This document shows positions 7,247-51,255 of a DNA stretch of 64,000 bases, piece after piece. Every line of letters begins with the position of its first letter. Position 1 is the first letter of the stretch. Both the position numbers and the translations under genes were made by a program. A model generated the notes under the pieces. It saw nothing but the letters and a program-made list of their open reading frames with translations. It was not told the origin of the DNA and did not search any database. Origin of the DNA: Squalus acanthias (Eukaryota); contig CM059431.1 in NCBI GenBank assembly GCA_030390025.1, positions 103,604,001 through 103,668,000 of the forward strand, written 5' to 3'.

Positions 7247-8425
7247 AGTGACTCCACTTCAAAGGTACTTCATTGGCTGCAAAGTGCTTTGCAACGTCCT
7301 GAGGTTGTGAAAGGCGCCGTAGAACTTCAGGTCCTTCTTTCCTTTTATTCTTTTCCTGTGTATTACGCTCAAGAACAATTTTCACCGTGACGTATTTTAA
7401 TGGCCTTTCTTACAACTTAAAAAAAAACTTGTTTTTTTTTAGCTCTACACCTCGGTGCACATTCCAATGCATAATTCACACTCCAACCCTGACCTGTACT
7501 TGGTATAGTTCCAAGACTCTCATTTAAAAGTATTTGCGGTTGCAGTACAGCTTTGATTGAAGCAACACCTTATGGTGAGTTCTTAGTACATCGGCACCAT
7601 GCTCAATTATGAAGTACATAGTGACAAATAACTTTTCATGGGTGACTTCACTTCTCGTTGTTTCCAGTAAATGGCTGATACTTTTTTATGACATGCATTC
7701 AGTAATTAGCCTGGCTGGTACCAGACGTGGGCTAGCGGCAACCAGAACTGACAGACAGAGGTCACTCCTAGGAGGCTCCGCAACAGATGGTGTACAGATT
7801 GGTGTTGGAAGTGAAATTTTATGTGAATAAGACATTAAGGTCTACGTTTCATTTGTTTTGTATTGAGATTGGTGAACTCTTCGAAGGAAACAAATTCAAT
7901 TTTCATGCATCTTTCATGCCTCGATTCCCCCCAAAAATGTGATTTGGTTTTAGAGCTGCTGTATTTATGCCCTTCATTGGATGGGATAAAAAAAAATTGG
8001 CTAGTAAGGGAGCACTTTCTCATATTATCATGCTGCGCGTAGCTCAACATTCCTATTTTAATTTCAGTCAATGAGAACTGTCTTTGTGAACATAAATTTC
8101 AGAAATTGCAATAAATTATAACTGTCATTGACTACTTATAATTTACAAATAATGCATCATAAAGGGCAATATGACATAGAATCTACAGCACAGAAACAGG
8201 CCATTCGGCCCAACTGGTCCGTGCCGGTGTTTATGCTCCACACCAGCCTCCTCCCACCCCTCTTCATCTCACCCTGTCAGCATAACCTTCTATTCCTTTC
8301 TCCCTCATGTGTTTATCTATCTTCCCCTTAAATGTATCTCTGCTATTCGCCTCATCTACTCCCTGTGGTAGCGAGTTACACATTCTCACCACTCTCTGGG
8401 TAAAGAAGTTTCCTTAATTGGATAT

Positions 8426-10167
8426 GATGCCACTACAGACTTCTTGCAGAAACTCAGCACCCATGGACCAGTTGAACCAGGAACACTCCTCGCCACGATG
8501 GACGTATCGGCACTCTACACCAATATCCCCCACAATGACGGCATCGCTGCGACAGCCTCAGTACTCAACACCAACAACAGCCAATCTCCAGACGCCATCC
8601 TACAACTCATCCGCTTCATGCTTGACCACAATGTCTTCACCTTCGACAACCAGTTTTTTACCCATGGGGACCAAATTCGCACCCCAATATGCCAACATCT
8701 TCATGCACAAGTTCGAGCAAGACTTCTTCGCTGCACAGGACCTCCAGCCAACGCTGTACACCAGATACATCGACGACATCTTCTTCCTTTGGACCCACGG
8801 CGAAGGATCACTGAAAGGACTACACGATAACATCAACAGGTTCCATCCCACCATCAAACTCACCATGGACTACTCCTCAGAATCGGTTTCATTCTTGGAC
8901 ACACGAATCTCCATCAAAGATGGACACCTCAGCACTTCACTCTACCGCAAGCCCATGGACAACCTCACGATGCTCCACTTCTCCAGCTTCCACCCTAACC
9001 ACGTTAAAGAAGCCATCGCCTATGGACAAGCCCTGCGAATACACAGGATCTGCTCAGACGAGGAGGAACGTGATGGACACCTACGGACGCTGAAAGACGC
9101 CCTCATAAGAACGGGATATGACGCTCGACTCGTCGATTGACAGTTCCGACGGGCCACAGCGAAAAACCGCATAGACCTCCTCAGAAGGCGAACACGGGAC
9201 ACAACCAACAGAGTACCCTACGTCGTCCAGTACTTCCCCGGAGCGGTGAAACTACGCCATGTTCTTCGCAGCCTTCAACATGTCATCGATGACGACGAAC
9301 ACCTTGCTAAGGCCATCCCCACGCCTCCACTACTCGCCTTCAAGCAGCCACCTAACCTCAAAAGTACCATCGTTCGCAGCAAATTACCCAGCTGTCAGGA
9401 GAACAGCGACCACGACACCACACAACCCTGCCACGGCAAGCTCTGCAAGACATGCCAGATCATCAACACAGATACCATCATCACACGTGAGGACACTACC
9501 CACCAGGTACATGGTACATACTCATGTGACTCGGCCAACGTTGCCTACCTCATACGTTGCAGGAAAGAATGCACTGCGGCATGGTACATTGGCGAGACCA
9601 TGCAGACACTGAGACAACGTATGAACGGACACCGCGCAACAATCGCCAGGCAGGATTGTTACCTCCCAGTCAGGGAACACTTCAGCAGTCAAGGACATTC
9701 AGCCTCGGATCTGCGGGTTAGCGTTCTCCAAGGCGGCCTTCGAGACACACGACAACGCAAAATCATCGAGCAGAAACTGATAGCCAAGTTCCGCACCCAT
9801 GAGGACGGCCTCAATAGGGATCTCGGGTTCATGTCATGCTACAGAACGTGACTCGACAGCTTTGTCTGTCTTTCCAGTTTAAAAAAAAACACAAAAAAAA
9901 AGTTAAAAGCTTAACTGCAGACGGCAGCATTTGACACGTTGGACCCCCTGTGACCCACCTCATTGTCTTAGCTGTACTCTGATGTGTCTTTGATGTAATG
10001 CCTCCCTAACAGATTGTATCTCTGCAGACAAATTGTTCTCTGTGTATATATACTGTGTAATAGATTCCCTCACTGTACCTTTACCTGAAGAAGGAGCGGA
10101 GCTCCGAAAGCTCGTCATTTTAAATAAAACTGTTGGACTATAACCTGGTGTTGTGCGACTTCTCATT
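8426..10167 (+). pseudogene. Penelope-like element (RT + GIY-YIG), 5'-truncated and decayed
   Basis: MDVSALYT, MGTKFAPQYAN, RYIDDIFF, VAYLIRC...WYIGET; a small deletion/frameshift near 8660 and a stop at 9138-9140 relative to the copy at 30016; flanked by ttaattggatat on both sides. Confidence 0.92.
10082..10116 (+). ncRNA. Minimal type-I hammerhead ribozyme motif (slightly degenerate) in the Penelope terminal repeat
   Basis: CTGAAGA-A-GGAGC(gga)GCTCC-GAAA-GCTC; stem I is poorly paired compared with the 32183 copy. Confidence 0.6.
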
Positions 10168-10599
10168 TTAATTGGATATATTAGTGATTATCTTATATTT
10201 ATGGCCCCTAGTTCTGGTCTCCCCCAAAAGTGGAAACATCTTCTTTCTGTGTCTACCCTATCAAAACCTTTCGTAATTTTAAGGACCTCCATTAGGTCAT
10301 CCCTCCTCCTTCTCTTTTCCAGAGAATAGAGCCCGAGCCTGTGCAGCCTTTCCTGATAGGTACAACATCTCAGTTCTGGTATCATCCTTTTAATACTGAC
10401 TCTCTGTAGATGCCAGCCCCCATTGCCTGCTTTTTTTTTTAGAAATTCACAAGTGGCAGAGATCAAGAAGACCGATCTCCACCTGATTTCCCCACGGTGC
10501 CCACAACCCCCCCCCCCACCAGGTTACAGGTTTAGCCGTTCCCTATAATACATTTAGATGCTCTGCTTTTGCCACTGTGAACGCAACAAAGACGTTTAA

Positions 10600-10867: not shown

Positions 10868-11378
10868 TCACAACAACTTGTATTTATATAGCGTCTTTAA
10901 CGTAGTTAAACATCCCGCGGCACTTCACAGGAACGATTATGAAACAAAATTTGAGAAGTCGCACAACACCAGGTTATAGTCCAACAGCTTTATTTGAAAT
11001 CACAAGCTTTCGGAGCGCTGCTCCTTCGTCAGGTGAAGCGAGCAGCACTCCGAAAGCTTGTGATTTCAAATAAAGCTGTCGGACTATAACCTGGTGTTGT
11101 GCGACTTCTCACATTTGTCCACCCCAGTCCAACACCGGCATCTCCGCATCAAACAAAATTTGACACCGAGCCACATAAGGAGATATTAGAACAGGTTTTT
11201 AAGGAGCGTCTTAAAGGCGATAAGAGAGGAAAAGAGGCGGAGAGGTTTAGGGAGGGAATTTCAGAGCTTGGGGCACAGGCAGCTGAAGGCACGGCCGCCA
11301 ATGGTGGAGCGATGAAAATCAGGGGGATGTGCAAGAAGCCAGAATTGGAGGAGCGCGGAGATCTGGGAGGGTTGTAGA
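10868..11378 (-). mobile_element. L2 3' end interrupted by a Penelope-derived mini-element
   Basis: The L2 tail resumes at aaacaaaatttgacaccgag (11151). Confidence 0.8.
10952..11150. mobile_element. Non-coding inverted pair of Penelope terminal repeats, with an intact hammerhead motif on the minus strand
   Basis: 10952-~11025 is the reverse complement of ~11040-11111, and both arms match the Penelope 3' ends (ggactataacctggtgttgtgcgacttctca); the minus strand at 11037-11000 reads ttcac CTGACGA a ggagc agc gctcc GAAA gctt gtga. Confidence 0.85.
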
Positions 11379-13364: not shown

Positions 13365-14117
13365 GGCCCGAAAATTAGACCTAATGTGGGAGAGTACGCA
13401 CTGTGTACTCTCGCGTATTAGGTCCCGAAGTGCCGGTTTCCTGCATGCACTGCGCATGCGCGGGAAACCGGCACTTCGGGTATTGCGAAGGGGGCGGTTC
13501 CTAAGTGAACCGCGTGCGCACTACAGGTTGTGCACACGCAGCGCACTTAGTTTTTTTTTCAGGTTTGAACGCGCAGGTAAGCGTTTAAGATTTTACACAT
13601 AAAGAAAGCAGGCGTAAGACCCCCTTTTAACAAGGTAAGTAGTTAATTAAGTATTATTTTAAATTTTTTTCAACAGGTTTATCTTTTTTAGAGACTTTAA
13701 AGAAAGGTAAGTTTATTTTTATAACTTTTAAAAAGAATTAAAAAAATTTCAAAAATTTAAATTTTTGTTTAAAGTGGTTAATTTATTTAACTATAGTTAT
13801 TTTATTAATGTGATGGCTTTTTTAAATTTAATTGAAGTTTAGCTGTTCTTTTGGGGGCTTGTTGTATTCATAATATTGACAGCTCTTGCTGTCAAAACTA
13901 TGAATGAAAGATGGTGTGCTGCCATTGGCTCTAACTGGCCCACGTGATCCCAGAGGTCGCACGAACTAACTGCGCCTCTGGGACATGCGCGCCGGCATCA
14001 GGGAGAGGCCCAGGAACTGAAGTTCGTGTGGGCCAAAACCATAAAGGCAGGCGCGGAGTGCGATATCGCGGGGGATCCTTACCCCCGTGGCAACCATCGA
14101 ACTCCAATTTCTGGGCC
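13365..14117. mobile_element. ~750-bp MITE (GGCC-ended family, AWT TSD), inside an old tRNA-SINE remnant
   Basis: Ends ggcccgaaaatt / aatttctgggcc; aat/aat TSD; homologous to 28914, 45627 and 61307. Confidence 0.8.
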
Positions 14118-20712: not shown

Positions 20713-21545
20713 TTTGAAAGCCTGTTCTCCATGAAGACATGAAAATCCCTAAGGCATCCAACCTGCAAATTAACCATAATATCACCAGTGGTAATTGGCA
20801 TTGATTTAAATAAGACGATCAATCAGCCATTCGTTCGTTTCCTAACATTTTTGGAATTTGTGTTATGTTTGCCTATTATCAGGCATTGACATGTCTTCCG
20901 ATATTGAGTAAGGAGCGAGCTAGAAATACTGCTATTGTTTATACATCATAGCAGATGACTGGATCTTTCTTGTAACTCTTCATTTGGAGATAGAACTTTC
21001 TTTTGCCTTGTTAAATTACAAATGCGCGCATGTCTCGTTTCCAAGGTGAGAGCCTAATGCAATGCACTCTGAGCATCCTGTCACAAACAATATTTCTTCA
21101 GAAGTAATGAACAGGAGCTGCAGGGTAAAAAGATTGAGGGATTAAAAACGTGCTCTGAAAATGCTTCAGTTTGATTAACTGGGAGTTGGAAAATTGAAGT
21201 CGACATGAACGCAATAACAAACTACCGCAAACATTCCAGACTGGCCAGCAATAGCTAAATGTCACACCTGAGATGCAAAAAGGCAGAGACCTGTGAAACG
21301 CAAAGACGTTTAAATCACTCCAGTCATTTAGTGAAGGGGGAAATCTAGTTTTCTCCAGCTTCAGGGTGGAAATAAATCCTGGCGTGAGAAGAGTTAAAAG
21401 TAAATTAAATTTGTATTCTCTTATATTTCACGTGCACTTTGTAATAAAATGCTCCTTCAATGCCAATGACAAAGAGCGCAAATAGGAAATAACTGAGGGC
21501 TGTAAATTGCCAGTCCTTCAAAGTCACTGCCCTCGTACTTTCCCC

Positions 21546-23980
21546 ATACTGAGGGAGCGCTGCACTGTCGGAGGTGGGGGGGCAGTACTGAGGGAGTGCT
21601 GCACTGTCAGAGGGGCAGTACTGAGGGAGCGCTGCACTGTCGGAGGGGCAATACTGAGGGAGTGCTGCACTGTTGGAGGGGCAGTACTGAGGGAGTGCTG
21701 CACTGTTGGAGGGGCAGTACTGAGGGAGCGCTGCACTGTCGGAGGGGCAATACTGAGGGAGTGCTGCACTGTTGGAGGGGCAGTACTGAGGGAGCGCTGC
21801 ACTGTCGGAGGGGCAGTACTGAGGGAGCGCCGCATGTTGGAGGGGCAGTACTGAGGGAGCGCTGCACTGTCAGAGGGGCAGTACTGAAGGAGCGCTGCAC
21901 TGTTGGAGGGCAGTACTGAGGGAGTGCTGCACTGTTGGAGGGGCAGTACTGAGGGAGCGCTGCACTGTCGGAGGGGCAATACTGAGGGAGTGCTGCACTG
22001 TTGGAGGGGCAGTACTGAGGGAGCGCTGCACTGTCGGAGGGGCAGTACTGAGGGAGCGCCGCATGTTGGAGGGGCAGTACTGAGGGAGCGCTGCACTGTC
22101 AGAGGGGCAGTACTGAAGGAGCGCTGCACTGTTGGAGGGCAGTACTCAGGGAGCGCTGCACTGTTGGAGGGGCAGGACTGAGGGAGTGCTGCACTGTCGG
22201 AGGGGCAGTACTGAGGGAGCGATGCACTGTCGGGGGGCAGTACTGAGGGAGCGCCGCACTGTCGGAGGGGCAGTACTGAGGGAGTGCTGCACTGTTGGAG
22301 GGGCAGTACTGAGGGAGCGCTGTACTGTCGGAGGAGCAGTACTGAGGGAGTGCTGCGCTGATGGAAGGGCAGTACTGAGGCAGCGCCGCACTGTCGGAGG
22401 GGCAGTACTGAGGGAGTGATGCACTGTCGGAGGGGCAGTACTGAGGGAGAGCTGCACTGTCGGAGGGGCAGTACTGAGGGAGTGCTGCACTGTCGGAGGG
22501 GCAGTACTGAGGGAGCGATGCACTGTCGGAGGGGCAGTACTGAGGGAGCGATGCACTGTCGGGGGGCAGTACTGAGGGAGTGATGCACTGTCGGGGGGCA
22601 GTACTTAGGGAGCGATGCACTGTCGGGGGGCAGTACTGAGGGAGCACTGCACTGTCGGAGGGGCAGTACTGAGGGAGTGCTGCACTGTCGGAGGGGCAGT
22701 ACTGAGGGAGCGCTGCGCTGACGGAGGGGCAGTACTGAGGGAGCGCCGCACTGTCGGAGGGGCAGTACTGAGGGAGTGCTGCACTGTCGGAGGGGCAGTA
22801 CTGAGGGAGCGCTGTACTGTCGGAGGGGCAGTACTGAGGGAGTGCTGCACTGATGGAGGGGCAGTACTGAGGGAGCGCCGCACTGTCGGAGGGGCAGTAC
22901 TGAGGGAGTGATGTACTGTCGGAGGGGCAGTACTGAGGGAGAGCTGCACTGTCGGAGGGGCAGTACTGAGGGAGTGCTGCACTGTCGGAGGGGCAGTACT
23001 GAGGGAGCGATGCACTGTCGGAGGGGCAGTACTGAGGGAGCGCTGCACTGTTGGAGGTTCAGTACTGAGGGAGCGCTGTACTGTCGGAGGAGCAGTACTG
23101 AGGGAGTGCTGCGCTGATGGAAGGGCAGTACTGAGGGAGCGCCGCACTGTCGGAGGGGCAGTACTGAGGGAGTGATGCACTGTCGGAGGGGCAGTACTGA
23201 GGGAGAGCTGCACTGTCGGAGGGGCAGTACTGAGGGAGTGCTGCACTGTCGGAGGGGCAGTACTGAGGGAGCGATGCACTGTCGGGGGGCAGTACTGAGG
23301 GAGTGATGCACTGTCGGGGGGCAGTACTTAGGGAGCGATGCACTGTCGGGGGGCAGTACTGAGGGAGCACTGCACTGTCGGAGGGGCAGTACTGAGGGAG
23401 TGCTGCACTGTCGGAGGGGCAGTACTGTGGGAGCGCTGCGCTGACGGAGGGGCAGTACTGAGGGAGCGCCGCACTGTCGGAGGGGCAGTACTGAGGGAGT
23501 GCTGCACTGTCGGAGGGGCAGTACTGAGGGAGCGCTGTACTGTCGGAGGGGCAGTACTGAGGGAGTGCTGCGCTGATGGAGGGGCAGTACTGAGGGAGCG
23601 CCGCACTGTCGGAGGGGCAGTACTGAGGGAGTGATGCACTGTCGGAGGGGCAGTACTGAGGGAGAGCTGCACTGTCGGAGGGGCAGTACTGAGGGAGTGC
23701 TGCACTGTCGGAGGGGCAGTACTGAGGGAGCGATGCACTGTCGGAGGGGCAGTACTGAGGGAGCGCTGCACTGTCGGGGGGCAGTACTAAGGGAGCGCTG
23801 CACTGTCGGAGAGGCAGTACTGAGGGAGCGCCGCACTGTCGGAGGGGCAGTACTGAGGGAGCGCCGCACTGTCGGAGGAGCAATACTGAGGGAGCGCCGC
23901 ACTGTCGGAGACGCAGTACTGAGGGAGCACTGCACTTTTGGAGGGGTAGTACTGAGGGAGTGCTGCATTGTCGGAGGGGC
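21546..23980. repeat. 33-bp minisatellite (about 74 units) derived from a DeuSINE internal segment
   Basis: Unit cagtactgagggagcgctgcactgtcggagggg; the last unit runs directly into the SINE body at 23981. Confidence 0.95.
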
Positions 23981-24310
23981 CATCTTTCAGTTAGATGTTA
24001 AACTGAGGCCCCATCTGCTCTCGCAGGTGGACGTAAAAGATCCCGCGGCCACTATTTCAAATAAGAGCAGGGGAGTTATCCCCGGTGTCCTGGGGCCAAT
24101 ATTTATCCCTCAACCAACATCACTAAAACCAGATTATCAGGTCATTATCACATCGCTGTTTGTGGGACTTTGCTGTGCGCAAATTGGCTGCCGCGTTTCC
24201 TACATTACAACAGCGCCTACACTTCAAAAAGTACTTCATAGGCTGTAAAGCACTTTGGGACGTCCTGAGGTCATGAAAGGCGCTATATAAATGCAAGTTC
24301 TTTCTTCCTT
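23981..24310 (+). mobile_element. DeuSINE body and tail (5' part replaced by the minisatellite)
   Basis: catctttcagttagatgttaaactgaggcccc...aggcgctatataaatgcaagttctttc. Confidence 0.9.
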
Positions 24311-28567: not shown

Positions 28568-28913
28568 TGTGGATTAATTGAGGAAAACCAGCACAGATTT
28601 GTTAAAGTCAAATCGTGTTTAACCAACTTGATTGAGTTTTTTGATGAGGTAACAGAGAGGGTTGATGAGGGCAATGCGGTTAACGTGGTGGACATGGATT
28701 TTCAAAATTCGTTTGACAAAGTGCCACGTAATAATTGCCAGCAAAGTTGAAGCCCGTAGAATAAAAGAGGCAGTGGCAGCATGGATACGAAATTGGCTAA
28801 GTGACAGGAAACAGAGAGTAGTGGTGAATGGTTGTTTTTCGGACTGGAGGAAGGTACACAGTGGTGTTCCCCAGGGGTCGGTTCTAGGACCACTGCTTTT
28901 CTTGATATATATT

Positions 28914-29667
28914 GGGCCAGAAATTCGGGTCGGAGGCTTCCCGCAGGTGCAAGCCCCCAACCTGCACTTACCTAGCGCGCCTGCCGTTGTGCTCTGGGCC
29001 CGCGTGGAATTCGGCTCCTGGGCCTCCTGCAGCTGCCGGCGCGCAGTGCTTGCGTATCCCAGGGACGCAGTTAGTTCGAAACGTCCCCTGGGATCACGTG
29101 GGCCATGGAGAGCCAATCGGAGCAGGGAATCTCCATTCATAGATTTGACAGGAAGACCGGCCCCATAGAGATCGGCCCCAAACCCTCACTAAAACTTCAA
29201 ATCATTGTTTTTTTAAATCACATTTTTAAAATAACTATAAATTACACAAAATATCTATTTTAAACAATAATATAATTTTTGAAAAAATTAATTACAGTTT
29301 TTAACGGGGCTAAAAATAAACGTACCTTTTTTTAAAGTATTTAAAAATAATAAACCTGTGGAAATTTTTTTTTAATTTTAGTTAATTCACCACTTACCTT
29401 GTTAAAAGCATGCCTTGCGCCTGCTTTTTCCCCGCGCAGCTGCTGGGGACTTACCCTCACACAGAAACCTGAAAAAAAAACGGAAGTCCGATGCGTGTGC
29501 GCTGCCTCTCCGGCGCACACGTTTGACCTCCGAACCCCTTCCTTCAAAGGAACGGAGGTTCCGGTTTCCAGCGCATGTGCAGTGCATGCGCGAAACCGGC
29601 ACTTTCGTTGGGTCTACAGGTGAGTACACAGCGCGTACTCACCCGTGGAGACCCGAATTTCTGGCCC
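28914..29667. mobile_element. ~750-bp MITE (GGCC-ended family)
   Basis: Perfect 16-bp TIR gggccagaaattcggg / cccgaatttctggccc; splits CR1 codons YI|ND; inverted relative to 61307. Confidence 0.9.
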
Positions 29668-30016
29668 AATGACTTGGATGTGGGTGTACAGGGGACAATT
29701 TCAAAATTTGCAGATGACACAAAATTTTGAAGCATAGTGAACAGTGAGGAGGAAAGCGATAGACTTTAAGAGGACATAGACAGGCAGGTGGAATGGGCGG
29801 ACACATGGCAGATGAAATTTAATGCAGAAAAGTGCAATGCGATACATTTTGGTAGAAAGAATGAAGAGAGGAAATATAAACTAAAGGGTACAATCCTGAA
29901 GGGTGTGCATGAACAGAGAGACCTGGGGGTATATGTGCACAAATCGTTGAAGGTGGCAGAGCAGGTTGAGAAAGCAGTTAAAAAAGCTTACGGGATCCTG
30001 GGCTTCATAAATAGAC

Positions 30017-31849
30017 GCTCTCAAGACCAACCGCAACATTGTCATCAAACCAGCGGACAAAGGAGGAGCCATCGTCATACAGAACAGAACGGACTATTGT
30101 AAAGAAGCATACCGACAACTGGACAACCAGGAACACTACAGACAGCTACCCGCAGATCCGACCAAAGAACACACCCGCCAACTCAATAGACTGATCAAGA
30201 CCTTCGATCCAGACCTTCAAAACATCCTACGCGCTCTCATCCCACGTACTCCCCGCTTGGGAGACTTCTACTGCCTCCCAAAGATACACGAAGCCAACAC
30301 ACCCGGACGTCCTATCGTATCAGGCAATGGAACCCTGTGTGAGAACCTCTCTGGATACGTCGAGGGCATTCTGAAACCCATCGTACAGGGAACCCCCAGC
30401 TTCTGTCGCGACACTACAGACTTCTTACAGAAACTCAGCACCCACGGACCAGTTGAACCAGGAACACTCCTTGCCACGATGGACGTATCGGCACTCTACA
30501 CCAGTATCCCCCACGATGACGGCATCGCTGCAACAGCCTCAGTACTCAACATCAACAACAGCCAATCTCCAGACGCCATCCTACAACTCATCCGCTTCAT
30601 CCTTGACCACAATGTCTTCACCTTCGACAACCATTTTTTTACCCAAACACACGGAACAGCCATGGGGACCAAATTCGCACCCCAATACGCCAACATCTTC
30701 ATGCACAAGTTCGAGCAAGACTTCTTCGCTGCACAGGACCTCCAGCCAACGCTGTACACCAGATACATCGACGACATTTTCTTCCTTTGGACCCATGGCG
30801 AAGGATCACTGAAAAGACTACACGATAACATAAACAAGTTCCATCCCACCATCAAACTCACCATGGACTACTCCTCAGAATCGGTCTCATTCCTGGACAC
30901 ACAAATCTCCATCAAAGACGGACACCTCAGCACTTCACTCTACCGCAAGCCCACGGACAACCTCACGATGCTCCACTTCTCCAGCTTCCACCCTAACCAT
31001 GTTAAAGAAGCCATCCCCTATGGACAAGCCCTGCGAATACACAGGATCTGCTCAGACGAGGAGGAACGCGATGGACACCTACGGACGCTGAAAAACGCCC
31101 TCGTAAGAACGGGATATGACGCTCGACTCATCGATCGACAGTTCCGACGGGCCACAGCGAAAAAACGCATAGACCTCCTCAGAAGGCAAACACGGGACAC
31201 AACCAACAGGGTACCCTACGTCGTCCAGTACTTCCCCGGAGCGGAGAAACTACGACATGTTCTTCGCAGCCTTCAACATGTCATCGATGACGACAAACAC
31301 CTCGCTAAGGCCATCCCCACGCCTCCACTACTTGCCTTCAAACAGCCGCCTAACCTCAGAAGTACCATCGTTCGCAGCAAATTACCCAGCTTTCAGGATA
31401 ACAGCGACCACGACACCACACAACCCTGCCATGGCAAACTCTGCAAGACATGCCAGATCATCAACACAGATACCACCATCACACGTGAGGACACTACCCA
31501 CCAGGTACATGGTACATACTCATGTGACTCGGCCAACGTTGTCTACCTCATACGTTGCAGGAAAGAATGCACCGCGGCATGGTACATCGGCGAGACCATG
31601 CAGACACTGAGACAACGTATGAACGAGCACCGCGCAACAATTGCCAGGCAGGATTGTTACCTCCCAGTCGGGGAACACTTCAGCAGTCAAGGACATTCAG
31701 CCTCGGATCTGCGGGTAAGCGTTCTCCAAGGCAACCTTAGAAACACACGACAACGCAAAATCATCGAGCAGAAACTGATAGCCAAGTTCCGCACTCATGA
31801 AGACGGTCTCAATCGGGATCTTGGGTTTATGTCACGATACATGACGTGA
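30017..31849 (+). CDS. Penelope RT / GIY-YIG endonuclease polyprotein (partial, no natural start)
   Basis: Frame open from the insertion junction: IKPADKGGAIV, FYCLPKIH, GRPIVS, MDVSALYT, GTAMG, YIDD, Cys linker PCHGKLCKTC, VVYLIRC...WYIGET...RQRMNEH. Confidence 0.9.
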   Translation, partial: ALKTNRNIVIKPADKGGAIVIQNRTDYCKEAYRQLDNQEHYRQLPADPTKEHTRQLNRLIKTFDPDLQNILRALIPRTPRLGDFYCLPKIHEANTPGRPIVSGNGTLCENLSGYVEGILKPIVQGTPSFCRDTTDFLQKLSTHGPVEPGTLLATMDVSALYTSIPHDDGIAATASVLNINNSQSPDAILQLIRFILDHNVFTFDNHFFTQTHGTAMGTKFAPQYANIFMHKFEQDFFAAQDLQPTLYTRYIDDIFFLWTHGEGSLKRLHDNINKFHPTIKLTMDYSSESVSFLDTQISIKDGHLSTSLYRKPTDNLTMLHFSSFHPNHVKEAIPYGQALRIHRICSDEEERDGHLRTLKNALVRTGYDARLIDRQFRRATAKKRIDLLRRQTRDTTNRVPYVVQYFPGAEKLRHVLRSLQHVIDDDKHLAKAIPTPPLLAFKQPPNLRSTIVRSKLPSFQDNSDHDTTQPCHGKLCKTCQIINTDTTITREDTTHQVHGTYSCDSANVVYLIRCRKECTAAWYIGETMQTLRQRMNEHRATIARQDCYLPVGEHFSSQGHSASDLRVSVLQGNLRNTRQRKIIEQKLIAKFRTHEDGLNRDLGFMSRYMT

Positions 31850-32182
31850 TCCGGACTCGAGTCGTCGTTAGCTTGTTCACAGATGTGATTCCCAGTAAAA
31901 AAGTAAAAATTTTCCCAGTAAAAAAGTAAATTTTTTTTAAAGCTTTTCGTTTTACATACAGACGGCAGCTTTTGACACGTTGGAACCCCTGCGACTACAC
32001 CTCATTGTCTCAGTTGTATCTTGCTATGTCTTTTGATGTGGTACCTTCCTGGCTGACTTAATTAACTTTATCACACCTCGGCAGATAGTCAGGATGATTT
32101 AATTTATTGGTCTGCAATTGTAAAGTACACATGCTTTTTTTTCCATCTATATATGCTCTGGCGATTCTGTATCCAATTTACT

Positions 32183-32220
32183 TCACCTGAGGAAGGAGCG
32201 ATAGCTCCGAAAGCTTGTGA
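32183..32220 (+). ncRNA. Minimal type-I hammerhead ribozyme motif
   Basis: tcac-CTGAGGA-a-ggagc(gata)gctcc-GAAA-gctt-gtga: stem I tcac/gtga, 5-bp stem II, palindromic aagctt in place of stem III. Confidence 0.75.
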
Positions 32221-33309
32221 TTTCAAATAAAACTGTTGGACTATAACCTGGTGTTGTGCGACCTCTCAATTTCATAAATAGAGGCATAGAGTACAAAAGC
32301 GTGGAAATTATGATGAACCTGTATAAAACACTGGTTCGGCCTCAACTGGAGTATTGTGTCCAATTCTGGGCACCGCACTTTAGGAAGGATGTGAAGGCCT
32401 GAGAGAGGGTTCAGAAAAGATTTACGAGACTGATTCCTGGGATGAGGGACTTCAGTTACGTTGATAGACTGGAGAAGCTGGGGTTGTTCTCCTTGGAGCA
32501 GAGAAGATTGAGAGGAGATTTGATAGAGGTGTTCAAAATCACGAGGGGTCTAGACAGAGTAGATAGAGAGAAACTGTTCCCATTGGCGGAAGGGTCGAGA
32601 ACCAGAGGACCCAGATCCAAGGTGATTGGCCGAAGAACCAAAGCAACATGTGGAAAAACTTTTTTACTCAGCGAGTGGTGGTGATCTGGAATGCACTGCC
32701 TGAAAGGGTGGTGGAGGCAGACTCAATCGTGGCTTTCAAGGAAAAAGATTTGCAGGGCTACGGGGAAAGGGCGGGGCAGTGCGACTAGCTGAAGTGCTCT
32801 TGCAGAGAGCCAGCACGGGCTCGACGGACCGAATGGCCTGCTTCTGTGCTGTAACCATTCTATGATTCTTTGATTCTAAGTCTTTCTTTCTTTCTATTGA
32901 TAAAATGCCATTGCTTAATCCAATACCGACTAAAATCTGGAGTACGCCGTGACATATTTCACTATAATTTTAGCCTGCACTTCCACTGAATTACACTTCA
33001 AACCTTACCCCCTCAGTGGAAATAAGAACCTACAAGATTGTTGCTTAAAAACTAATTTATCTTGTAGCCAAAGGAAGGAAAGTAGTTCCAAATACATAAG
33101 ATAAGATCGAGTGTGCCATTTAATAAAAATAAATGACAACATCCTTCATTTTAAAAGGCTGAGTGTAAGTACTGCTATATTCTGAATGCATTATAAAAAA
33201 TGATTAGCTTTGCATTTGAGAAACATAAACACTACAATGTTACTGTTCAACAAACACTGTGGCAGAAAGTTTTATACACCCATATTAATCTGCTGAATGA
33301 GGAAACTAT

Positions 33310-34800: not shown

Positions 34801-35981
34801 CTCACGTGAACTTCTTGAATTTACGCCAGTTCTGAACTAGCTCTAAAATTTACAACTGAGGTTTTAGGTGCAGCAGAACTCCAAGTCATATTCCTGCTGT
34901 TATTTTTCAGCATTTATTTTATGTTGCTTATTTCTCCTCACTGAAACCTAAACAAGACTCAGGGGCGAGCGTGACACCCACTGTGGATGGGCTGGAGGAT
35001 GCATTTAAAAAATAAAATTTGTTCACAGGAGGTACGCTTCCGACCGCAAATTCCCAGTCAATACATTGAGCTGGAGCAGCTGTGGAATACTGTGCACGCG
35101 AATTGATGCCTTGGATTTTAAAGTTTTATAGATTGATATCTCCATGTTCTATAAATCACTGTTGATGCACAAAACCTTCGAGTTACTTTCGCTTGACTGG
35201 GAGGCTGCTCAAGAAGCCAACATTTGCACATTGCATTGATCAAACATCGACACCATGGGCTCAGGTTCCACTGCCTAAGTTTAATTGGAAAATCCTTTGC
35301 TGCAACCTGCTGCAGCTGCACGAGGATCAAATCTCCATTCAGCTTCTGAGAAAGGCCTTCACCATCAGCGGCGCATCACCGCATGTTTATTTGCATGTGT
35401 TTGCATATATTAGCATATGTAAATGGCTTGCTGAGGCAGGCGATTTGAATAATGCAAAACATAACTTCCAATTCGGTCCCTTAATTTGATGCTGGCGGTA
35501 TGCTCAGATGCCATTTGTAGAATAAATTGGCAGTTTTCCCCATTGAGTGAGGGCATTTCATGCCACATAATAGTCTAAGGGTTTTTAAAGTCCACAAGGT
35601 GCAATATTAACACTTAGGGGGAAAAATTCAGTTGATTAGCGCCTCCCGTTAGCGCCCTAAGAGGGCGCTAATGGGGCACAAAGCAACTAGCACCCGGGCG
35701 CGGCGATGTTTGCGCTACACTACCGCCACGATCTCCTGCGCCCACAGATCGTGACGTCAGTTGAGCGTGCAATACCCCGGTAGCGCCCCGGACCGGATAT
35801 TGAGTGGCGCCCCCTGCCTTTCCGCCTGCCGATAGCAACGACAGGTAGAGGGGAACGTTTTGCAGTTGGGAAGGGACTGGGGGAGTGCTACTTAAAAGTG
35901 GCCGCTTCCTGCCTTTTTTTGTCGGCGACATTTTTGCACCACGCAGTCTGAGAGAGAGAGAGAGACTTCTGGAGAGATTCA

Positions 35982-37109
35982 ATGCTGTGTGAAGGAGTTT
36001 TGGGTACTGAGCATCACTTTGCAGTTTCATTTTTATTTGACCTTCATTGCAACGATTTAGAAGAGACTGTGGGGGCTGCACTGATTCGGGGCGTCGTCCT
36101 GCACCTGCAGAATCGGAGGCAGCAGAGACGCAGAGAGAGAGTGGCAAACATGGCTAGAGGGAGGGAGGCCAACAGGCCTCTGCACAGGAGACCTTACCCT
36201 CCCAGGGTATTCCGGGAACAATTCTCCTACATTCATTTGTCTGAGGAGCAGTGTTTGCGCAGGCTGCGCTTCAGCAAGGAGGTGGTCACTGAGCTCTGCC
36301 ACCTGCTGCAACCAGATCTGCAGCCTCAACTGAGGACCAGGACGTCTCTGTCGGTGGCAGTGAAGGTGACAGTGGCTCTGAATTTTTATGCCAGTGGCTC
36401 CTTTCAAGCATCTACTGGGGACATCGCCAATATCTCCCAGTTCGCTGTCCATTGTTGTATCTGGGAGGTGACAAATGTCATGTATAAAAGGAGACGCCAG
36501 TACATCTCTTTCCCCATGACCTGGGCCAAACAGCATGAACGCACATGTGGCTTTGCTAGGATAGCGGGCTTCCCCATGGTGCAGGGCGCCATTGACTACA
36601 TGCATGTGACATTGCAGGCACCGCATGAAAATACAGAGGTATTCCGAAACCACAAGGGCTACCACTCCTTAAATGTGCAGTTGGTCTGTGACCAGACACG
36701 TCTCATACTCGCCGTCAATGCCCGCTATCCTGGCAGCAGCCACGATGCTTTCATCCTGCGCCAGACTGGTGTGCTAGACCTTTTCCAGGCAGTGCACCAG
36801 CCAAGTGGATGGCTCCTCGGGGACAAGGGTTATCCACTCTGCACCTGGCTGATGACACCGCTCCGTGACCCCAACACCCCTGCTGAGCTGTGGTATAATG
36901 AGAGCCATATCACCACCAGGAACATAATTGAGCAGACGATCGGCATGCTCAAGCAACGGTTCCGCTGTCTGGACCACTCAGGAGGAGCCCTGCAGTACTC
37001 TCCTGAGCTAGTCTCCCTCTTCATAGTTGTGTGCTGCATGCTTCACAACCTGGCAATCCTGAGGACCCAGCCAATGCCACCAGGGATTGGTGCACCACCT
37101 GAGGAGGAG

Positions 37110-37141
<32 letters not shown>

Positions 37142-37232
37142 TGATCAGCAGCAGCACCAACGTGGGAGGGAGGCCCACAATGTTCCCAGTGCAAGGGCCG
37201 TACGTCAATGGCTGATAACAAGCCGCTTCTAG
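35982..37232 (+). CDS. Harbinger (HARBI1-like) DDE transposase
   Basis: RRLRFSKE, VALNFYASGSFQ, GFPMVQGAID, SLNVQLVCD, YPGSSHDAFIL, GWLLGDKGYP, RNIIEQTIGMLKQRFRCL, CCMLHN, acidic tail; start uncertain (first ATG at 36150). Confidence 0.9.
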
Positions 37233-37542
37233 GCCCCTACTCAGAAGATGGCTTCTGGCATGGAGAATAACATCATGGAAAGCAACCCGCACCCCCTATT
37301 GCCAGCCAAAGCTGGAATGATTCAAAGGCCAAAAATGTAAATTTTGATTACAACAACTTTTTGCTTTAGCAAACTCTGTGTGTGTCATTTATTCAGGACA
37401 AACAATTAGAAAGAAACACAACAAATCATGAACTAACAGAACTGGTTCTCACAAGATGGAGATAAACGGCAAAACAGTAAACAAATGTATCACACAAACC
37501 TCAACCTTTACCACAAACATTCCCACCATTTCTTTAGACCTC

Positions 37543-39286
37543 CTACTGTTTGCCCTTCGAGGCTGATCTCCATCCCCTGCGCACTTGCCCCCTTCCCACC
37601 CTACTGCTCCTCCGTAATGGGGCCCTAGTGGCTGCAGCAAGGCTGGTGGAAGGCTGCTGATTGTCAGAACCTGAGACTACAGATGCCCTTGAAGGACAAC
37701 CTGGACCAGCTCTGGGCCTGGAGGGCCCGGCTGCAGACTGCACCAACTCTGCATGGGCGGCAGCAGTCTGGGCTGGCTGTGTTGCAGGTGGTGGCAAGTG
37801 CAATGGGGGAAGTGCCAGTGGTGGGAGCAGGAATGCTGTCATCCTGAGAGAGGACAGCACCTTCCTGCTTGAACCACACACTGGCACTCCCATGGGGCAG
37901 TACCTCAGCATCCGGAGCAATCTGCTCGAGCACAGATTGCTGGCCTGCTGCGGCGCGATGAGAGCCCCGGGGCAATGTGGCTGACCCAGCGAGGGTGGCA
38001 GCAGTCAGTGCTTGCGTGACATCAATCTGAGACTGCATGAGAGCAGTCTGAGACTGGATGGCACCAGCCAATGACTGAATTGCAGCACTAAGCCGTTGCG
38101 TTGCATCGGCCTGTGCTGCAGCAGAGTGCTCCACACTCCTAGCCAGTCCATCAATGCTTTCGTGCACCCTTGCTATTGCACCCATGAGCTCAGTGTGCAA
38201 GCTCAAGGCCTGGCTATTCATGGCAGCGATGACGCGGTTCTCCTCTGAGTCCAGTGCAGCAGGACTCGCTTGCCTACTCGCCCTCTGGGGAGATGGCCCC
38301 CGAGCTTCCCTACCCCTATGGCGTTGCTGCAGCCCACTGGGTCCCGGAGCTTGGCCCTCATCAGACCCTACCCCCCTGCTCCCCTCCAGGGAAGGCGTGG
38401 TCCCAGTGTCGGTATGGGCTCCCTTGGGAGACGCAGGCGGTGAGGCTCCGGCTTCCTCTTCCTCCTCGCCTGGGGCGTCGCTGACACTGGTAGGTTAAGG
38501 ACAGGCTGGTCAGCTGGTGGTTCACTATCTGAAAGCAGGGAGGTACAAGAGTGGCTTTAGCGTCAGGACAGGGGGGCAGTAAGGGAGCAAGGACTGGAGA
38601 GAGTTAGTAAGTTGGATTGAAAGTGTAAAAGGCTGGTCTTGTGAGGGGCAAGTGGAATGAGAGAGGAGAGAAAGCTGATGAACATACCATAGCTGTCCCC
38701 AAGGTGGTCGACCTCTCCAGCGGCCACGGCACCTATGACCTGGCTGGCAACGATCCTGTGCACGCACACCTCCAAATCGCTGAGGGTGTGTAGGTCAGCC
38801 GGTCCTCCTCCCGTCCGCCTGTTATGAGAGAGCTTGGCCTGCAAGAAAAAGGACGGCGTCTGAGTGAATGTGCAGCCATGTGCTTGCCTGATGTGCCTCC
38901 CATAGTTGAATAACCCTTGTGTGCGTGTGTGTTTTATGAGATGGCCATAGGTCTTGGATGAGTGTTGGGCATTTGGGGTTTTTAAACCCTCTGGGACAGA
39001 GTGAAGTTGAGATGGAGGGATGTAGAGGTATTGAAAAGCAGCCACTCACCCTGACCACCCGAGTGAGGTCGTTGAACTTCTTCCGACATTGGGTGTGGGT
39101 CCTCGGCACCAGGCTTCTCGAGGAGACGTGCTGAGCCCCCTCCCTCCAGACTCTTCTGTATTCGTGGGGCAATGGCCTCCTACCACTCTGTGGGTAGAGC
39201 AGTGCTCGTCGCCGCTCCACTGCACCAACCAGAGCCACCAAGGCCCGGTCGCTGAAGCACTGAGCTCTTTCCCTGGGCCTATCCAT
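37543..39286 (-). pseudogene. Harbinger Myb/SANT-like DNA-binding gene, 3 predicted exons (39286-39050, 38838-38688, 38528-37543), frameshifted in exon 3
   Basis: MDRPRERAQCFSDRALVALV...RRVWREGAQHVSSRSLVPRTHTQCRKKFNDL; donors gtgagt and gtatgt, acceptors tttttcttgcag and ctgctttcag; exon 3 needs frameshifts near ~38495 and ~37810. Confidence 0.75.
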
Positions 39287-39645
39287 TGGTGGTTCCAGCA
39301 CAATTGATGTACAGGTCTCTCCAGGCCGAGATTCAAGGCTACAATGAGCAGGATGTGGATGGAGAGCAAGATGGCCCCTCCCCTTTAAGAACTGGCCGGG
39401 GCCAGTGTGTCTGTGTTCCATTGCTAACTGACATCACCTGAGCTTCGCCAGCGCTCTGAGTTAGCGCCTCGCTCCTCGACGTTAGCGCCTTAAGACAGAT
39501 GTGTAGCGCCTGATTTAGCGCTCCAATCACCTCCAGGGGCGATAGAGGCCAAGTCTGCAGTCGGAGGCGATAAATAGCGCCGGCGCTAAACTTGGCGCCC
39601 GGCCGATAATAGCACCCCAAACGGGGTGATACCGAATTTCCCCCC

Positions 39646-39860: not shown

Positions 39861-39960
39861 ATTTAATCAACTTGATATCGTCTCCACGCTTTGGGTGATT
39901 CGGAACAACCAGCTGCAACTCGAACCACAGAAGGGAACTAGGGCAAGAAACTGATCCATC

Positions 39961-40761
39961 ATGGAAAAACTCCTTAGACCCACTCGTCTCGACCTGGACC
40001 CGAATGCACCTGCGGCAGCGAAGGTATGGAAGCATTGGTTTCGTACCTTTAGCAACTTTCTTGAAGAATGTGGGGCGGATGTCCCTAATAAGTTAGGAAT
40101 GCTTATCAACTACGTGTCTCCTCATGTGTATGATTATATTGAGGACTGTATAGTCTATGACACTGCTATCGAAATCTTACAGCAGCTATATGTCAAGTCC
40201 CCAAATGAAATATTTGCTCGACACCTACTGGCCATAACTCGGCAGCAGCCTGGGGAATCACTCGATGAATTTCTCCAGAAACTTCGCAGGCTCAGCAAGG
40301 ATTGTAACCTTAAAGCAGTTACAGCTGAACAGTATCAAGAGGAACTAATCCGCGATTCCTTTATCAATGGAATCGCGTCCCGTTTTATACGTCAGCGCCT
40401 GCTGGAAAATAAAACCCTCAATTTACGGGCTGCTTATGACCAGGCGTGTTCCTTGGACTTGGCCAAGAAAAATGCAGACACTTATCTCCCACCACGTGCA
40501 CGGGCGGCGGCTATCTCCTTTAATGAGTCTTTCGGTAGGTCTCGGGCGGATGCCCCCACTGATGTTGACTCTACTCTAACGGACGACGACCCTACCCTAG
40601 AGGCCTTCGCTGATGACGACCCCGCCCTAGCAGCATCCTGGCAATCAGGAAGAAAGTGTTTCTTTTGTGGAGGGGCGTGCCATCACAGAAAATTTTGCCC
40701 GGCTCGTAATGTGACCTGCAATCATTGCAGCAAGAAAGGACACTTTTCCAAGGTATGCTAG
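39961..40761 (+). CDS. Gag with two Cys/His knuckles
   Basis: LRPTRLDLDPN...WKHW, RQQPGESLDEFLQKL, LIRDSFINGI, CFFCGGACHHRKFC, CNHCSKKGHFSKVC; ends at a TAG in frame with pol. Confidence 0.9.
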   Translation: MEKLLRPTRLDLDPNAPAAAKVWKHWFRTFSNFLEECGADVPNKLGMLINYVSPHVYDYIEDCIVYDTAIEILQQLYVKSPNEIFARHLLAITRQQPGESLDEFLQKLRRLSKDCNLKAVTAEQYQEELIRDSFINGIASRFIRQRLLENKTLNLRAAYDQACSLDLAKKNADTYLPPRARAAAISFNESFGRSRADAPTDVDSTLTDDDPTLEAFADDDPALAASWQSGRKCFFCGGACHHRKFCPARNVTCNHCSKKGHFSKVC

Positions 40762-43700
40762 TCACGGGCCTTTGCTAACAAGAAAGGCCGCTCCTCTAAA
40801 GTATACCGGTCGAGAGCTCCTGTTAGCTTCACAGCTGCTATCTATGGAGCTGCTCCTCCCCCAAGAACTACTGTTAAGGCTACAGTTGCCGAAGTGAAAA
40901 TTGCCCCTCCTCCCATCACGGCTGTTTTTCCCCAAAGTTTGTCCCATGCAGCCACGAAGGTTTCAGTAAATGGGCACACTCTAAGCGCGCTAATCGACTC
41001 CTGCAGCTCTGACAGCTTCATTAGTAAGCGGGCTGTCAACAGGTTAAAACTGCACATTTATCCCTCGGACAGGGAGATTGCAATGGCTCTGACGACTCTG
41101 ACCACCAATTCTTCTGGCTTCTGTCTGGTCAACCTCATCCTCAACGGCCGCACGTATCTCTCCACCCGGCTCGGAGTACTCGCAAACTTATGCAGCGATG
41201 TGCTTCTGGGACAGGACTTCCAGAAGCAGCACAAGAAGATCACTTTTGAGTTTGGAGGGTCAAGGCCGGAGCTTACCATTTCTAAGGTGCCGTTTTGTGC
41301 ACTCTCGGCGGCCTTACTCGGTGAACCCTCCCTGTTTGCCAATCTTCCCCCCCGCTGTAAACCCATAGCCACCAAATCGCGGCGCTTTAGCCAAGACGAT
41401 CGAGCGTTTATTGAGGCGGAAATCTCTCGCCTTTTAGTCGACGGTATTATCGAGCCATGTTCATCTCCCTGGCGGGCTCAGGTCGTCATCGTGAGGAATC
41501 CCTTAAAACAACATAAAAAACGTCTGTGTATCGATTATTCGCAGACTATTAATCTATATACCGATCTGGATGCCTACCCGCTGCCACGCATAGATGACAT
41601 GGTCAACAACCTTGCCAAATACAAGGTATTCTCGACCTTCGATTTAAAAAGCGCGTACCATCAGGTGCCACTGCAAGACTCCGACAAGAAGTATACGGCC
41701 TTTGAGGCCAATGGTCGGCTTTTCCAGTTTCGCCGCCTTCTATTCGGGGTCACCAATGGGGTGGCCGTCTTCCAACGGGCCATGGATGGCCTAGTCCGGC
41801 AAGAGAACTTGACGGATACCTTTCCGTATTTAGACAATATCACTATTGCCGGCCATGATCAAAAGGAGCATGACGCCAATCTTCAGAGATTTTTTGACGT
41901 ACTCCGCCGTCGCCACTTAACGTTAAACGAATCCAAATCAGTGAAGTCGGTGCCATCGGTGAACATTCTTGTCTACTGGGTGGGCAACGGTGTTATTAAA
42001 CCGGACCCAGAGCGACTTCGTCCACTTCAGGAGCTCCCTCCCCCGACGAACCTCGGCTCTCTTCGTCGGGCACTTGGCATGTTTGCTTATTACGCAAAAT
42101 GGATACCACACTTCTCCGATAAAATACAGCCCCTGCTCCATGCGAAGTCTTTTCCATTGGAAGCTACGGCTATTTCTGCCTTCAACCTCCTCAAACGACA
42201 GCTGGAGAAAGCCACGCTTCGCTCCATTGACGAAAATCTTCCTTTTGTGGTCGAATGCGATGCATCGGAGGTGGCGATCTCCGCTACCTTGAATCAAGGT
42301 GGCCGACCCGTGGCATTCCTATCCAGAACCTTGCAGGGTAGTGAGCTCCATTACCCCCCCGTCGAGAAGGAGGCTACGGCCATCATCGAGGCTGTACACC
42401 AATGGGGTCATTTTCTTGCTCGGCGTCATTTTACGCTTATAACTGACCAGCGCTCTGTGGCCTTCATGTTGGATAACCGGAGGCGCACGAAAATCAAAAA
42501 TAATAAAATTCAACTCTGGAGGATGGAGCTGGCTGCCTTTGGATATACTATCTGTTACCGACCCGGCAAACAGAACGTGGCCCCAGATACCTTCACACGG
42601 GCATTTTGCTCCTCAATGTCAACGTCGACTCTGGCGGATTTGCATATGGACTTATGCCATCCTGGTGTGACCCGCATGTTGCACTTTGTGCGCTCCAAAA
42701 ATCTACCATTTTCAACCGAGGACGTAAAGAAAACATGCTCCTCCTGTAGGATTTGTGCAGAATTGAAACCACAATTCTTTCGCCCATCAGATGGCTTACT
42801 CATACATGCAATGCAGCCTATGCAGAGGCTCAGCATAGACTTTAAAGGGCCATTGCCTTCGTCGACAAGGAACACCTACCTACTTACGATGGTGGACGAG
42901 TATTCGCGCTTTCCCTTCGCCTTCCCCTGCCCTAATATGCTTACCTCTACGGTAATTAAATGCCTCGATCAGGTCTTTTCCCTTTGCGGGACGGCCAATT
43001 TTATCCACACTGATCGGGGTCCCTCCTTTATGTCGAGTGAACTTAAAAGTTATCTCTCCCAACGGGGAATCGCCTCAAGTAGGACGACACCATATCACCC
43101 AATCGGTAACGGACAGGTTGAACGATACAATGCCATCATCTGGAACGCTGTCCGTCTGGCACTAAGGTCACGCAACCTGCCGGACCAGCAGTGGGAAACG
43201 GTGCTCCCCGACGCGTTACACTCTATCAGGTCTCTTCTCTCCACATCTACTAATGTCACGCCTCATGAGCGATTCTTCAAATTCCGGCGTCGCTCTACAC
43301 ATGGGACGTCTCTACCGTCATGGTTGGTGGCTCCAGGCCCGGTACTACTCCGGAGGTTCGTCCGGTCTGCCAAAAACGACCCTCTCATTGACGAGGTGGA
43401 GTTAACGGAGGTAAACCCCACGTATGCGCACGTACGGTACCCTGATGGCCGGGAGACCACCGTCTCGCTCCGAGATCTGGCTCCCTGCCCAACCGGTCAC
43501 ACGGGCCCGAATGATGAAGGATCCCCCGACAATGATATCAACACTCCGCACCCCTATGAAAATGACGCCCCGCCTGGGACATCGGGGGATCTGCTGGCAA
43601 CGCTACCGGATCAACTCAGGGAGCTGGACGCTCCCCGTAGGATGGCCACCCGAAACCAGGACGCCGGACAATCTCCAGTCACGACCCGGGATGAGGCCAG

Positions 43701-43806
43701 CTCAGCACCTGTGGGGACCCGCACCCGGAGTCATGATATTCCCAGTCCTCCACAGGATGATCAAGATGACGTGGACTCTACTGACTTACCGGTACGGGCC
43801 AAGTGA
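40762..43806 (+). CDS. Pol (protease, RT, RNase H, integrase), same frame as gag
   Basis: LIDSCS (protease), DAYPLPRIDD, FDLKSAYHQV, YLDN, ECDAS, EKEA, TDQ, HHCC, IDFKGP, TDRG, GQVER; no stop between 40762 and 43803. Confidence 0.92.
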   Translation, partial: SRAFANKKGRSSKVYRSRAPVSFTAAIYGAAPPPRTTVKATVAEVKIAPPPITAVFPQSLSHAATKVSVNGHTLSALIDSCSSDSFISKRAVNRLKLHIYPSDREIAMALTTLTTNSSGFCLVNLILNGRTYLSTRLGVLANLCSDVLLGQDFQKQHKKITFEFGGSRPELTISKVPFCALSAALLGEPSLFANLPPRCKPIATKSRRFSQDDRAFIEAEISRLLVDGIIEPCSSPWRAQVVIVRNPLKQHKKRLCIDYSQTINLYTDLDAYPLPRIDDMVNNLAKYKVFSTFDLKSAYHQVPLQDSDKKYTAFEANGRLFQFRRLLFGVTNGVAVFQRAMDGLVRQENLTDTFPYLDNITIAGHDQKEHDANLQRFFDVLRRRHLTLNESKSVKSVPSVNILVYWVGNGVIKPDPERLRPLQELPPPTNLGSLRRALGMFAYYAKWIPHFSDKIQPLLHAKSFPLEATAISAFNLLKRQLEKATLRSIDENLPFVVECDASEVAISATLNQGGRPVAFLSRTLQGSELHYPPVEKEATAIIEAVHQWGHFLARRHFTLITDQRSVAFMLDNRRRTKIKNNKIQLWRMELAAFGYTICYRPGKQNVAPDTFTRAFCSSMSTSTLADLHMDLCHPGVTRMLHFVRSKNLPFSTEDVKKTCSSCRICAELKPQFFRPSDGLLIHAMQPMQRLSIDFKGPLPSSTRNTYLLTMVDEYSRFPFAFPCPNMLTSTVIKCLDQVFSLCGTANFIHTDRGPSFMSSELKSYLSQRGIASSRTTPYHPIGNGQVERYNAIIWNAVRLALRSRNLPDQQWETVLPDALHSIRSLLSTSTNVTPHERFFKFRRRSTHGTSLPSWLVAPGPVLLRRFVRSAKNDPLIDEVELTEVNPTYAHVRYPDGRETTVSLRDLAPCPTGHTGPNDEGSPDNDINTPHPYENDAPPGTSGDLLATLPDQLRELDAPRRMATRNQDAGQSPVTTRDEASSAPVGTRTRSHDIPSPPQDDQDDVDSTDLPVRAK

Positions 43807-50561: not shown

Positions 50562-51255
50562 AACCTGAAGGTGGCAGGACATATTGAGAGAGTGGTTAGC
50601 AAAGCATATGGGATCTTAGGCTTCATAAATAGAGGTATTGAGTACAAAAGTACAGAAGTTATGCTGAACCTTTATAAAGTGCTGGCTAGGCCACATCTGG
50701 AGTATTGCATCCAGTTCTGGTCACCACACTTTAGGAAGGATGTGAAGGCCCTTGAGAGGGTGCAGAGGAGATTTCCCAGAATGGTTCCGGGGATGGGGGA
50801 TCTTAGCTACAAGGACAGGTTGGAGAAGCTGGATTTGTTTTCATGAGAGCAAAGGAGGTTGAGGGGTGATTTGATAGAGGTGTACCAGATTATGACGGGT
50901 TTGGATAGGCTAGACGGGGAAAGGCTGTTCCCACTAGTTGATGGTACAAGGACTAGGGGACACAGATTTAAGGTTTTGGGCAAGAAATACAGGGGGGATG
51001 TGAGGAAAAACCTTTTTACGCAGCGAGTGGTGAGGACCTGGAATTCGCTGCCGACGGAAGTGGTGGAAGCGGAGACACTCAATGTTTTCAAGGGGAGACT
51101 GAATAGACACTTGAGGGAAATAAACTTGCAGGGCTACGGGGATAGAGCGGGGGAATGGAACTGACTGGATTGCTCTACAGAGAGCCGGCATGGACTCGAT
51201 GGGCCGAATGGCCTCCTTCTGTACTGTTCTGACCCCATGACCCTATGACTCTGAC
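50562..51255 (+). mobile_element. CR1 LINE 3' end
   Basis: KAYGILGFINRGIEYKS...RPHLEYCIQFWSP...RGDLIEVYQIM. Confidence 0.9.

Follow-up and report, generated by a model that had tools for sequence, protein, structure and literature searches.

The window, a 64,000-nucleotide stretch of the Squalus acanthias genome, carries a minimal type I hammerhead motif close to the 3' end of a Penelope-like element (PLE), designated copy A. We propose that this motif is the minimal hammerhead ribozyme (min-HHR) of the pseudo-LTR (pLTR) of a shark PLE with a Neptune/Nematis-type zinc linker, and that it would cleave as a dimer in tandem copies of the family. In a full tandem copy, two motifs on one precursor RNA would pair their AGCU palindromes and thereby form the missing stem III, which would allow a cut after CUU or CUC that is slow and probably aided by the element's own protein. 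At the copy A locus itself, the motif is most likely an inert passenger of a recent insertion. We estimate the probability of this explanation as a whole at about 85%. The features on which it is based are listed in Table 1.

Table 1 Features of the three PLE copies and their hammerhead motifs, in positions of the window
Feature	Position	Strand	Basis or detail
PLE copy A	30016..32270	+	5'-truncated, single 3' pLTR; target duplication, self-BLAST
Left target-site duplication, copy A	30004..30015	+	12 bp
Right target-site duplication, copy A	32271..32282	+	12 bp
Open frame, copy A	30011..31849	+	612 codons stop to stop; DKG, RT, C-x4-C-x2-C linker, GIY-YIG
Minimal type I hammerhead, copy A	32183-32220	+	Read from sequence; structural descriptor
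Stem I, copy A	32183-32186 with 32217-32220	+	TCAC with GTGA, 4 bp
Core, copy A	32187-32193	+	CUGAGGA (CTGAGGA)
Bulged A before stem II, copy A	32194	+	
Stem II, copy A	32195-32208	+	5 bp, GGAGC/gata/GCTCC; first pair G32195-C32208
GAAA box, copy A	32209-32212	+	
GC-TT, copy A	32213-32216	+	
Self-complementary AGCU, copy A	32212..32215	+	Positions 15.1, 15.2, 16.2, 16.1
CUU triplet, copy A	32214..32217	+	Hammerhead numbering, PMC4209133 consensus
Conserved 50-nt element terminus	32221..32270	+	47/50 identical to copy B
PLE copy B	8426..10167	+	5'-truncated, frameshifted, in-frame stop 9138-9140
Duplication of copy B	8414-8425 and 10168-10179		12 bp
Hammerhead, copy B	10081..10117	+	Intact core CUGAAGA, loop GGA, CUC triplet
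Copy C	10955..11150		196-bp head-to-head inverted pair of element termini
Tail on one arm of copy C	11112-11150		~39 nt
Duplication of copy C	10942-10954 and 11151-11163		13 bp
Hammerhead, copy C	11000..11036	-	Complete, core CUGACGA, loop AGC

A sequence-only reading of this DNA had placed a minimal type I hammerhead of a Penelope element about 50 nt from the element end, and both the place and the class were confirmed. The motif lies 334 nt past the stop codon and 50 nt ahead of the element end defined by the target duplication, and it matches the published consensus of the class (PMC4209133). A full structural descriptor identified two motifs in the 64-kb window (32187 on the plus strand and 11032 on the minus strand); it required a stem I of 3 bp or longer in addition to the core, stem II, the palindrome and UH. 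A third motif, at 10085 on the plus strand, was recovered once a stem I of 2 bp was accepted. The CUGANGA core and the GAAA...UH boxes were present in type I order in all three window copies. At the 3-bp setting, none of 300 dinucleotide shuffles of the window contained any descriptor match, and a plain pattern had two matches in the window compared with 0.02 expected.

The search with hammerhead models that the earlier reading had called for gave a divided result. The Rfam hammerhead families returned no match at E values up to 10, either across the full window or within 32100-32300, while the motif was recovered by the descriptor and by a covariance model trained only on 22 foreign motifs from distant relatives. 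Under this model, copies A, C and B scored 29.1, 26.6 and 18.2 bits, respectively, and the next-best match in the window scored 12.4 bits; the E value of copy A was 6e-5, although E values from this model are rough.

The copy A insertion interrupts a host repeat whose unbroken copy lies at 50566-50933, and the duplicated stretch is present once in that copy (50622-50633). From its translated motifs, we take this host repeat to be CR1-like. Self-BLAST detected no second repeat within or beside copy A, indicating that there is no upstream pLTR. The RT-GIY-YIG frame had been described as open, and its 612 codons are indeed open, but they comprise only the C-terminal part of the protein of a 5'-truncated element. 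Relative to the 881-aa protein P0004, the frame begins just ahead of the DKG motif, and about 270 N-terminal residues are absent. The full-length open reading frame and upstream pLTR of a tandem-active PLE are thus both missing from copy A, which leaves its motif without a tandem partner. The open frame was considered as a mark of an active element and was rejected as such because copy A is 5'-truncated and solitary. The absence of an upstream repeat, together with a distance of 22 kb to the nearest copy on the same strand, is the basis for regarding the copy A motif as an inert passenger.

The copy A frame matched Pfam RVT_1 (E 1e-8) and GIY-YIG, the latter at 22.8 bits and so barely above the Pfam cut-off of 22.6. 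A protein search yielded 2168 matches among 7999 scored proteins. Within the best 120 of these 2168 matches, the closest proteins were from sharks (Heptranchias perlo, 91%; Scyliorhinus torazame, 86%), and 15 of the best 120 were taken for alignment. The linker cysteines C473, C478 and C481 were invariant in 16/16 aligned proteins, and DKG was also present. By published criteria (PMC8557442), the element would belong to the Neptune or Nematis clade, an assignment based on motifs. The last bases of the duplication, at 30011-30016, translate in frame to I-D, as in the closest shark protein, a hint of 5'-junction microhomology in copy A. Copy A encodes E at 30288-30290 and at 31625-31627, whereas the residues shared by almost all aligned relatives are K (PKIHK) and G (MNGHR), respectively; these two changes may mark the onset of decay in a frame that is still open.

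Over 1639 aligned columns, copies A and B share 90% identity. The hammerhead of copy B had been described as a degenerate copy at 10082-10116. It does occupy the same position in this second Penelope, but its core is intact and only stem I is damaged, with 2 bp, a mismatch and 1 bp compared with the 4 bp of copies A and C. The third hammerhead, for which the earlier reading gave no location, was found on the minus strand of the 196-bp insertion that constitutes copy C. One arm of copy C carries the complete motif, and the other begins inside stem II and bears the tail. Folding of either strand of copy C produced a single long hairpin (-132 and -145 kcal/mol), and the hammerhead would be buried in this near-perfect hairpin if copy C were transcribed. 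An Rfam match to MIR7807 at 10979-11084 (57 bits, below the 90-bit cut-off) was rejected as merely the hairpin of the inverted copy. Inverted repeats, optional tails of 30-40 nt and duplications of 8-10 bp are known for the PLE class (PMC8557442, PMC3846280). As had been stated, the stem II loops of copies A, B and C differ (gata, gga and agc) and pairing is kept. The stem II sequence is identical in all three, and the window alone therefore gives no covariation. The suggestion that the loop variation reflects structural selection was not upheld, since a constant stem among copies about 90% alike is weak evidence for it.

Evidence beyond the window came from relatives that were found by protein alignment, blind to the RNA motif. 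These were 77 metagenome loci with 30-42% protein identity, drawn from the best 80 of 419 confirmed; they are not independent, and a single assembly series supplies many of them. In 34/77 loci, a total of 50 motifs matched the descriptor, all on the sense strand and none antisense, and motifs were present in 0/30 shuffled sets of these loci. A downstream motif was located in 29 of the 59 loci whose sequence extends 300 nt or more beyond the protein match. In a fairer test, anchors were defined by the core and stem II alone, which gave 38 distinct sense anchors. Thirty of the 38 continued into a Watson-Crick palindrome and UH, and 28 of the 38 had a stem I of 3 bp or longer. When the stem I partner was slid by +1, -1, +2 and +3, only 0, 0, 1 and 2 anchors passed, and antisense anchors passed in 0/4 cases.

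Base pairing was compared across 30 distinct motifs, two of which were from the window. The 15.2-16.2 pair was CG in 17, TA in 8, GC in 4 and AT in 1, and the G10.1-C11.1 pair was GC in 27/30. Position 17 in the same set was U in 18, A in 7 and C in 5, which makes U a frequent base at the predicted cut site of these relatives. Among the 22 loopless foreign motifs, 8/9 pairs change on both sides with 98.5% pairing, a value that is partly by construction because these motifs were picked by a descriptor that requires pairing. The C3-G8 pair becomes U3-A8 in relatives. The stem covariation sought in the earlier reading is thus absent for stem II in the window copies, but it is provided by the distant relatives. 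The anatomy of the motif, its position and its conservation with covariation across relatives are established here.

These comparisons also decide whether the motif could be a chance resemblance to a hammerhead. The lack of an Rfam hammerhead match and the invariance of stem II in the window copies, which on their own show no covariation, would be expected of such a resemblance. The empty shuffles, the recovery of the window copies by a model built on foreign motifs, and the presence of the motif in distant relatives at the same position and on the same strand, with stems that are altered yet paired, refute it, and we assign it a negligible probability.

Several features of the related loci were recorded in addition. 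The U3-A8 core variant occurs in many related elements (L005, L023, L035, L040, L044 and L056-L074; for example, L044:5244-5287). L056, L058 and L074 each contain at least two different motifs, some with the C3-G8 core. Several loci have the motif on both sides of the ORF, as tandem repeats would give. Five loci keep the core and stem II and have a non-palindromic segment after GAAA (L017:3369, L029:2834, L048:2627, L054:2338 and L060:3117); the minimal descriptor may here be missing hammerheads that are canonical or that vary in some other way. A search of viral contigs gave 200 pattern matches and no relatives.

Because AGCU has no loop, two copies are needed to build stem III. The earlier reading had assigned intermolecular stem III to the palindrome aagctt. 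That idea matches the published model, in which stem III is intermolecular and cleavage takes place in a dimer (PMC4209133), and the palindrome covaries in relatives; however, only AGCU fits, since positions 14 and 17 of the core are taken by the outer A and U. The cut is predicted to fall after 32216, between 32216 and 32217, and the cleavage after CUU that had been inferred agrees with the model published for the class (PMC4209133). For motifs of the kind treated by Lunse et al. (PMC5785218), a review likewise describes cleavage in the form of dimers. For the shark family, dimer cleavage and help from a protein are proposed by analogy to these and other published members.

Nearest-neighbor calculations gave -24.9 kcal/mol for the double hammerhead of copy A, compared with -27.4 kcal/mol for two folded monomers and -29.6 kcal/mol for a loop-to-loop stem II duplex. 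With 200 nt of native sequence included in the fold, the probability of stem I was about 0.001 and that of stem II about 1.0. The dimer is thus not predicted to be favored, in models that ignore tertiary contacts, and A14-U17 pairing could even hinder cleavage. These weak calculated energetics fit published behavior, in which a hammerhead of this class was inactive as a monomer and weakly active as dimers (PMC4209133). The motif of the Anolis carolinensis element was cleaved only with the element's protein, and no RNA-seq read of that element had its end at the cut site (PMC11167929).

The same calculations could suggest that the motif is a family feature kept for its structure, as a protein-binding or priming signal at the junction of repeat and ORF, that does not cleave at a useful rate in this shark lineage. 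The unfavored dimer and the unstable stem I would be expected in that case, and U17-A14 pairing across a 6-nt palindrome could hide the cut site. The anole ribozyme is also dispensable for insertion in vitro (PMC11167929), and Naiad elements spread without canonical motifs (PMC8557442). Set against this are the catalytic core positions, all intact in 3/3 window copies, and the switch from C3-G8 to U3-A8 in relatives, which preserves a pair that is required for catalysis (PMC11167929). Published members also do cleave, albeit slowly (PMC4209133, PMC11167929). We consider a purely structural role unlikely and favor a min-HHR that would cleave in tandem copies.

Variation among close copies was assessed in contigs from 4 of 24 listed sequencing runs over 31700-32290, using a difference table that is not exhaustive. 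T>C at 32216, which converts CUU to CUC, was found in contigs of 3/4 runs, and G>A at 32219 was found in 4/4 runs. The differences listed for the motif also included insertions of 4-5 nt within the hairpin of stem II. Loose contig ends in three runs had T at 32184, as in copy B. Together, T at 32184 and A at 32219 would convert a C-G pair of stem I to U-A in the copy B subfamily, if these unphased changes occur on the same molecules. The table contained no rows for core positions, which is not evidence of core conservation because it also omits the position-7 differences of copies B and C. Loose ends past 32272 contained the copy C tail again in 4/4 runs. Contig depth climbed over 32200-32259, a rise that was not read as cleavage because contigs cannot reveal RNA ends or levels.

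The element terminus was abundant in contigs of run X7, which is only guessed to be RNA, and this abundance could point to function of copy A in situ, with a host or read-through transcript cut when the motif pairs in trans with another copy, or with copy B, which lies 22 kb upstream on the same strand. The intactness of copy A, and the AGCU palindrome and strand that copies A and B have in common, would suit such a reaction. Against it, the insertion is young and lies inside another repeat, so its intactness requires no selection, the contigs carry no strand or end information, and the partners would be joined by only four base pairs. We regard function in situ as very improbable. Equally improbable, in our estimate, is the broader proposal that dispersed 3' fragments of the shark family act as half-ribozymes in host transcripts, cut in trans via the four-base palindrome. 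If it were true, the shark would possess a conditional RNA-cleavage switch acting genome-wide, perhaps active only in cells that express the element protein, and the CUU/CUC subfamily difference would tune the cleavage rate.

The min-HHR class was described in the pLTRs of metazoan PLEs by Cervera and de la Pena (2014, PMC4209133), and the copy A motif agrees with that description in its CUGANGA core, the bulged base before stem II and the G10.1-C11.1 pair. It also shares the type I layout, the 4-bp stem I, the loopless palindromic 15.2-16.2 pair, the U-rich 5' and AU-rich 3' flanks and the position in the terminal repeat. In Fig. S3 of that paper, the Chrysemys picta motif has G C U U at the same positions as copy A, and the Petromyzon motif has the same UCAC/GUGA stem I. 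At 5 bp, stem II of copy A is among the shortest of the lengths listed there. In supplement file 2 of that paper, taken alone, the terms 'shark' and 'Callorhinchus' had no matches. As judged from sequence, copy A has every defining feature of the published min-HHR as set out there, with no difference of kind found.

Likeness to other known elements was also evident. The Poseidon element PAc of Anolis carolinensis (Frangieh et al. 2024, PMC11167929) has a pLTR hammerhead, as copy A does, an optional end tail of 30-40 nt comparable to that of copy C, and AT-rich targets in common with the shark copies. PAc differs in belonging to the Poseidon clade and having no zinc linker, whereas the copy A protein has one; protein-assisted cleavage, proposed for the shark family, was demonstrated for PAc. 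Neptune and Nematis elements (Craig et al. 2021, PMC8557442) encode an RT followed by a C-terminal GIY-YIG, together with DKG and CX2-5CxxC, as copy A does, and they form 5'-truncated and inverted insertions like those of the window copies. Non-LTR retrozymes carry a type I hammerhead related to that of Penelope pLTRs, and retrozymes with a hammerhead were reported in the sole chondrichthyan genome sampled (bioRxiv 10.64898/2026.07.22.740005). Retrozymes are tandem non-coding repeats, whereas the window motif occurs singly, on a coding element or an inverted fragment.

A search of the literature by title or abstract found no paper on the shark PLE family of copy A. Copy A is a correct but ordinary shark example of a class known since 2014, and our analysis corrects the picture of the locus, which is not an intact element. 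The young, abundant CUU/CUC family provides material for the in vivo role of Penelope hammerheads, a question described as open (PMC8557442, PMC11167929). The proper substrate for that question would be a full tandem copy elsewhere, and not the truncated copy A.

Other elements were identified in the window. A plus-strand frame of 426 codons at 35952-37232 resembles a DDE_Tnp_4 transposase (E 1e-35). Opposite-strand frames at 37664-38494 and 38822-39433, both on the minus strand, are presumably Myb/SANT-like partners of this frame, and the 35952-39433 region looks like a PIF/Harbinger DNA transposon. On the plus strand at 39955-43806, a 268-codon frame precedes one of 1014 codons, whose protease, RT, RNase H and integrase domains are in Ty3/gypsy order; the two frames probably belong to a young LTR retrotransposon. 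At 21405-24000, 33-bp tandem repeats form a long array that gives rise to several spurious minus-strand open frames. Three related repeat copies in mixed orientation, 75-82% alike, are located at 29258-29670, 61304-61716 and 13605-13790, and the LINE fragment in which copy A lies is also broken by the repeat copy at about 28912-29670.
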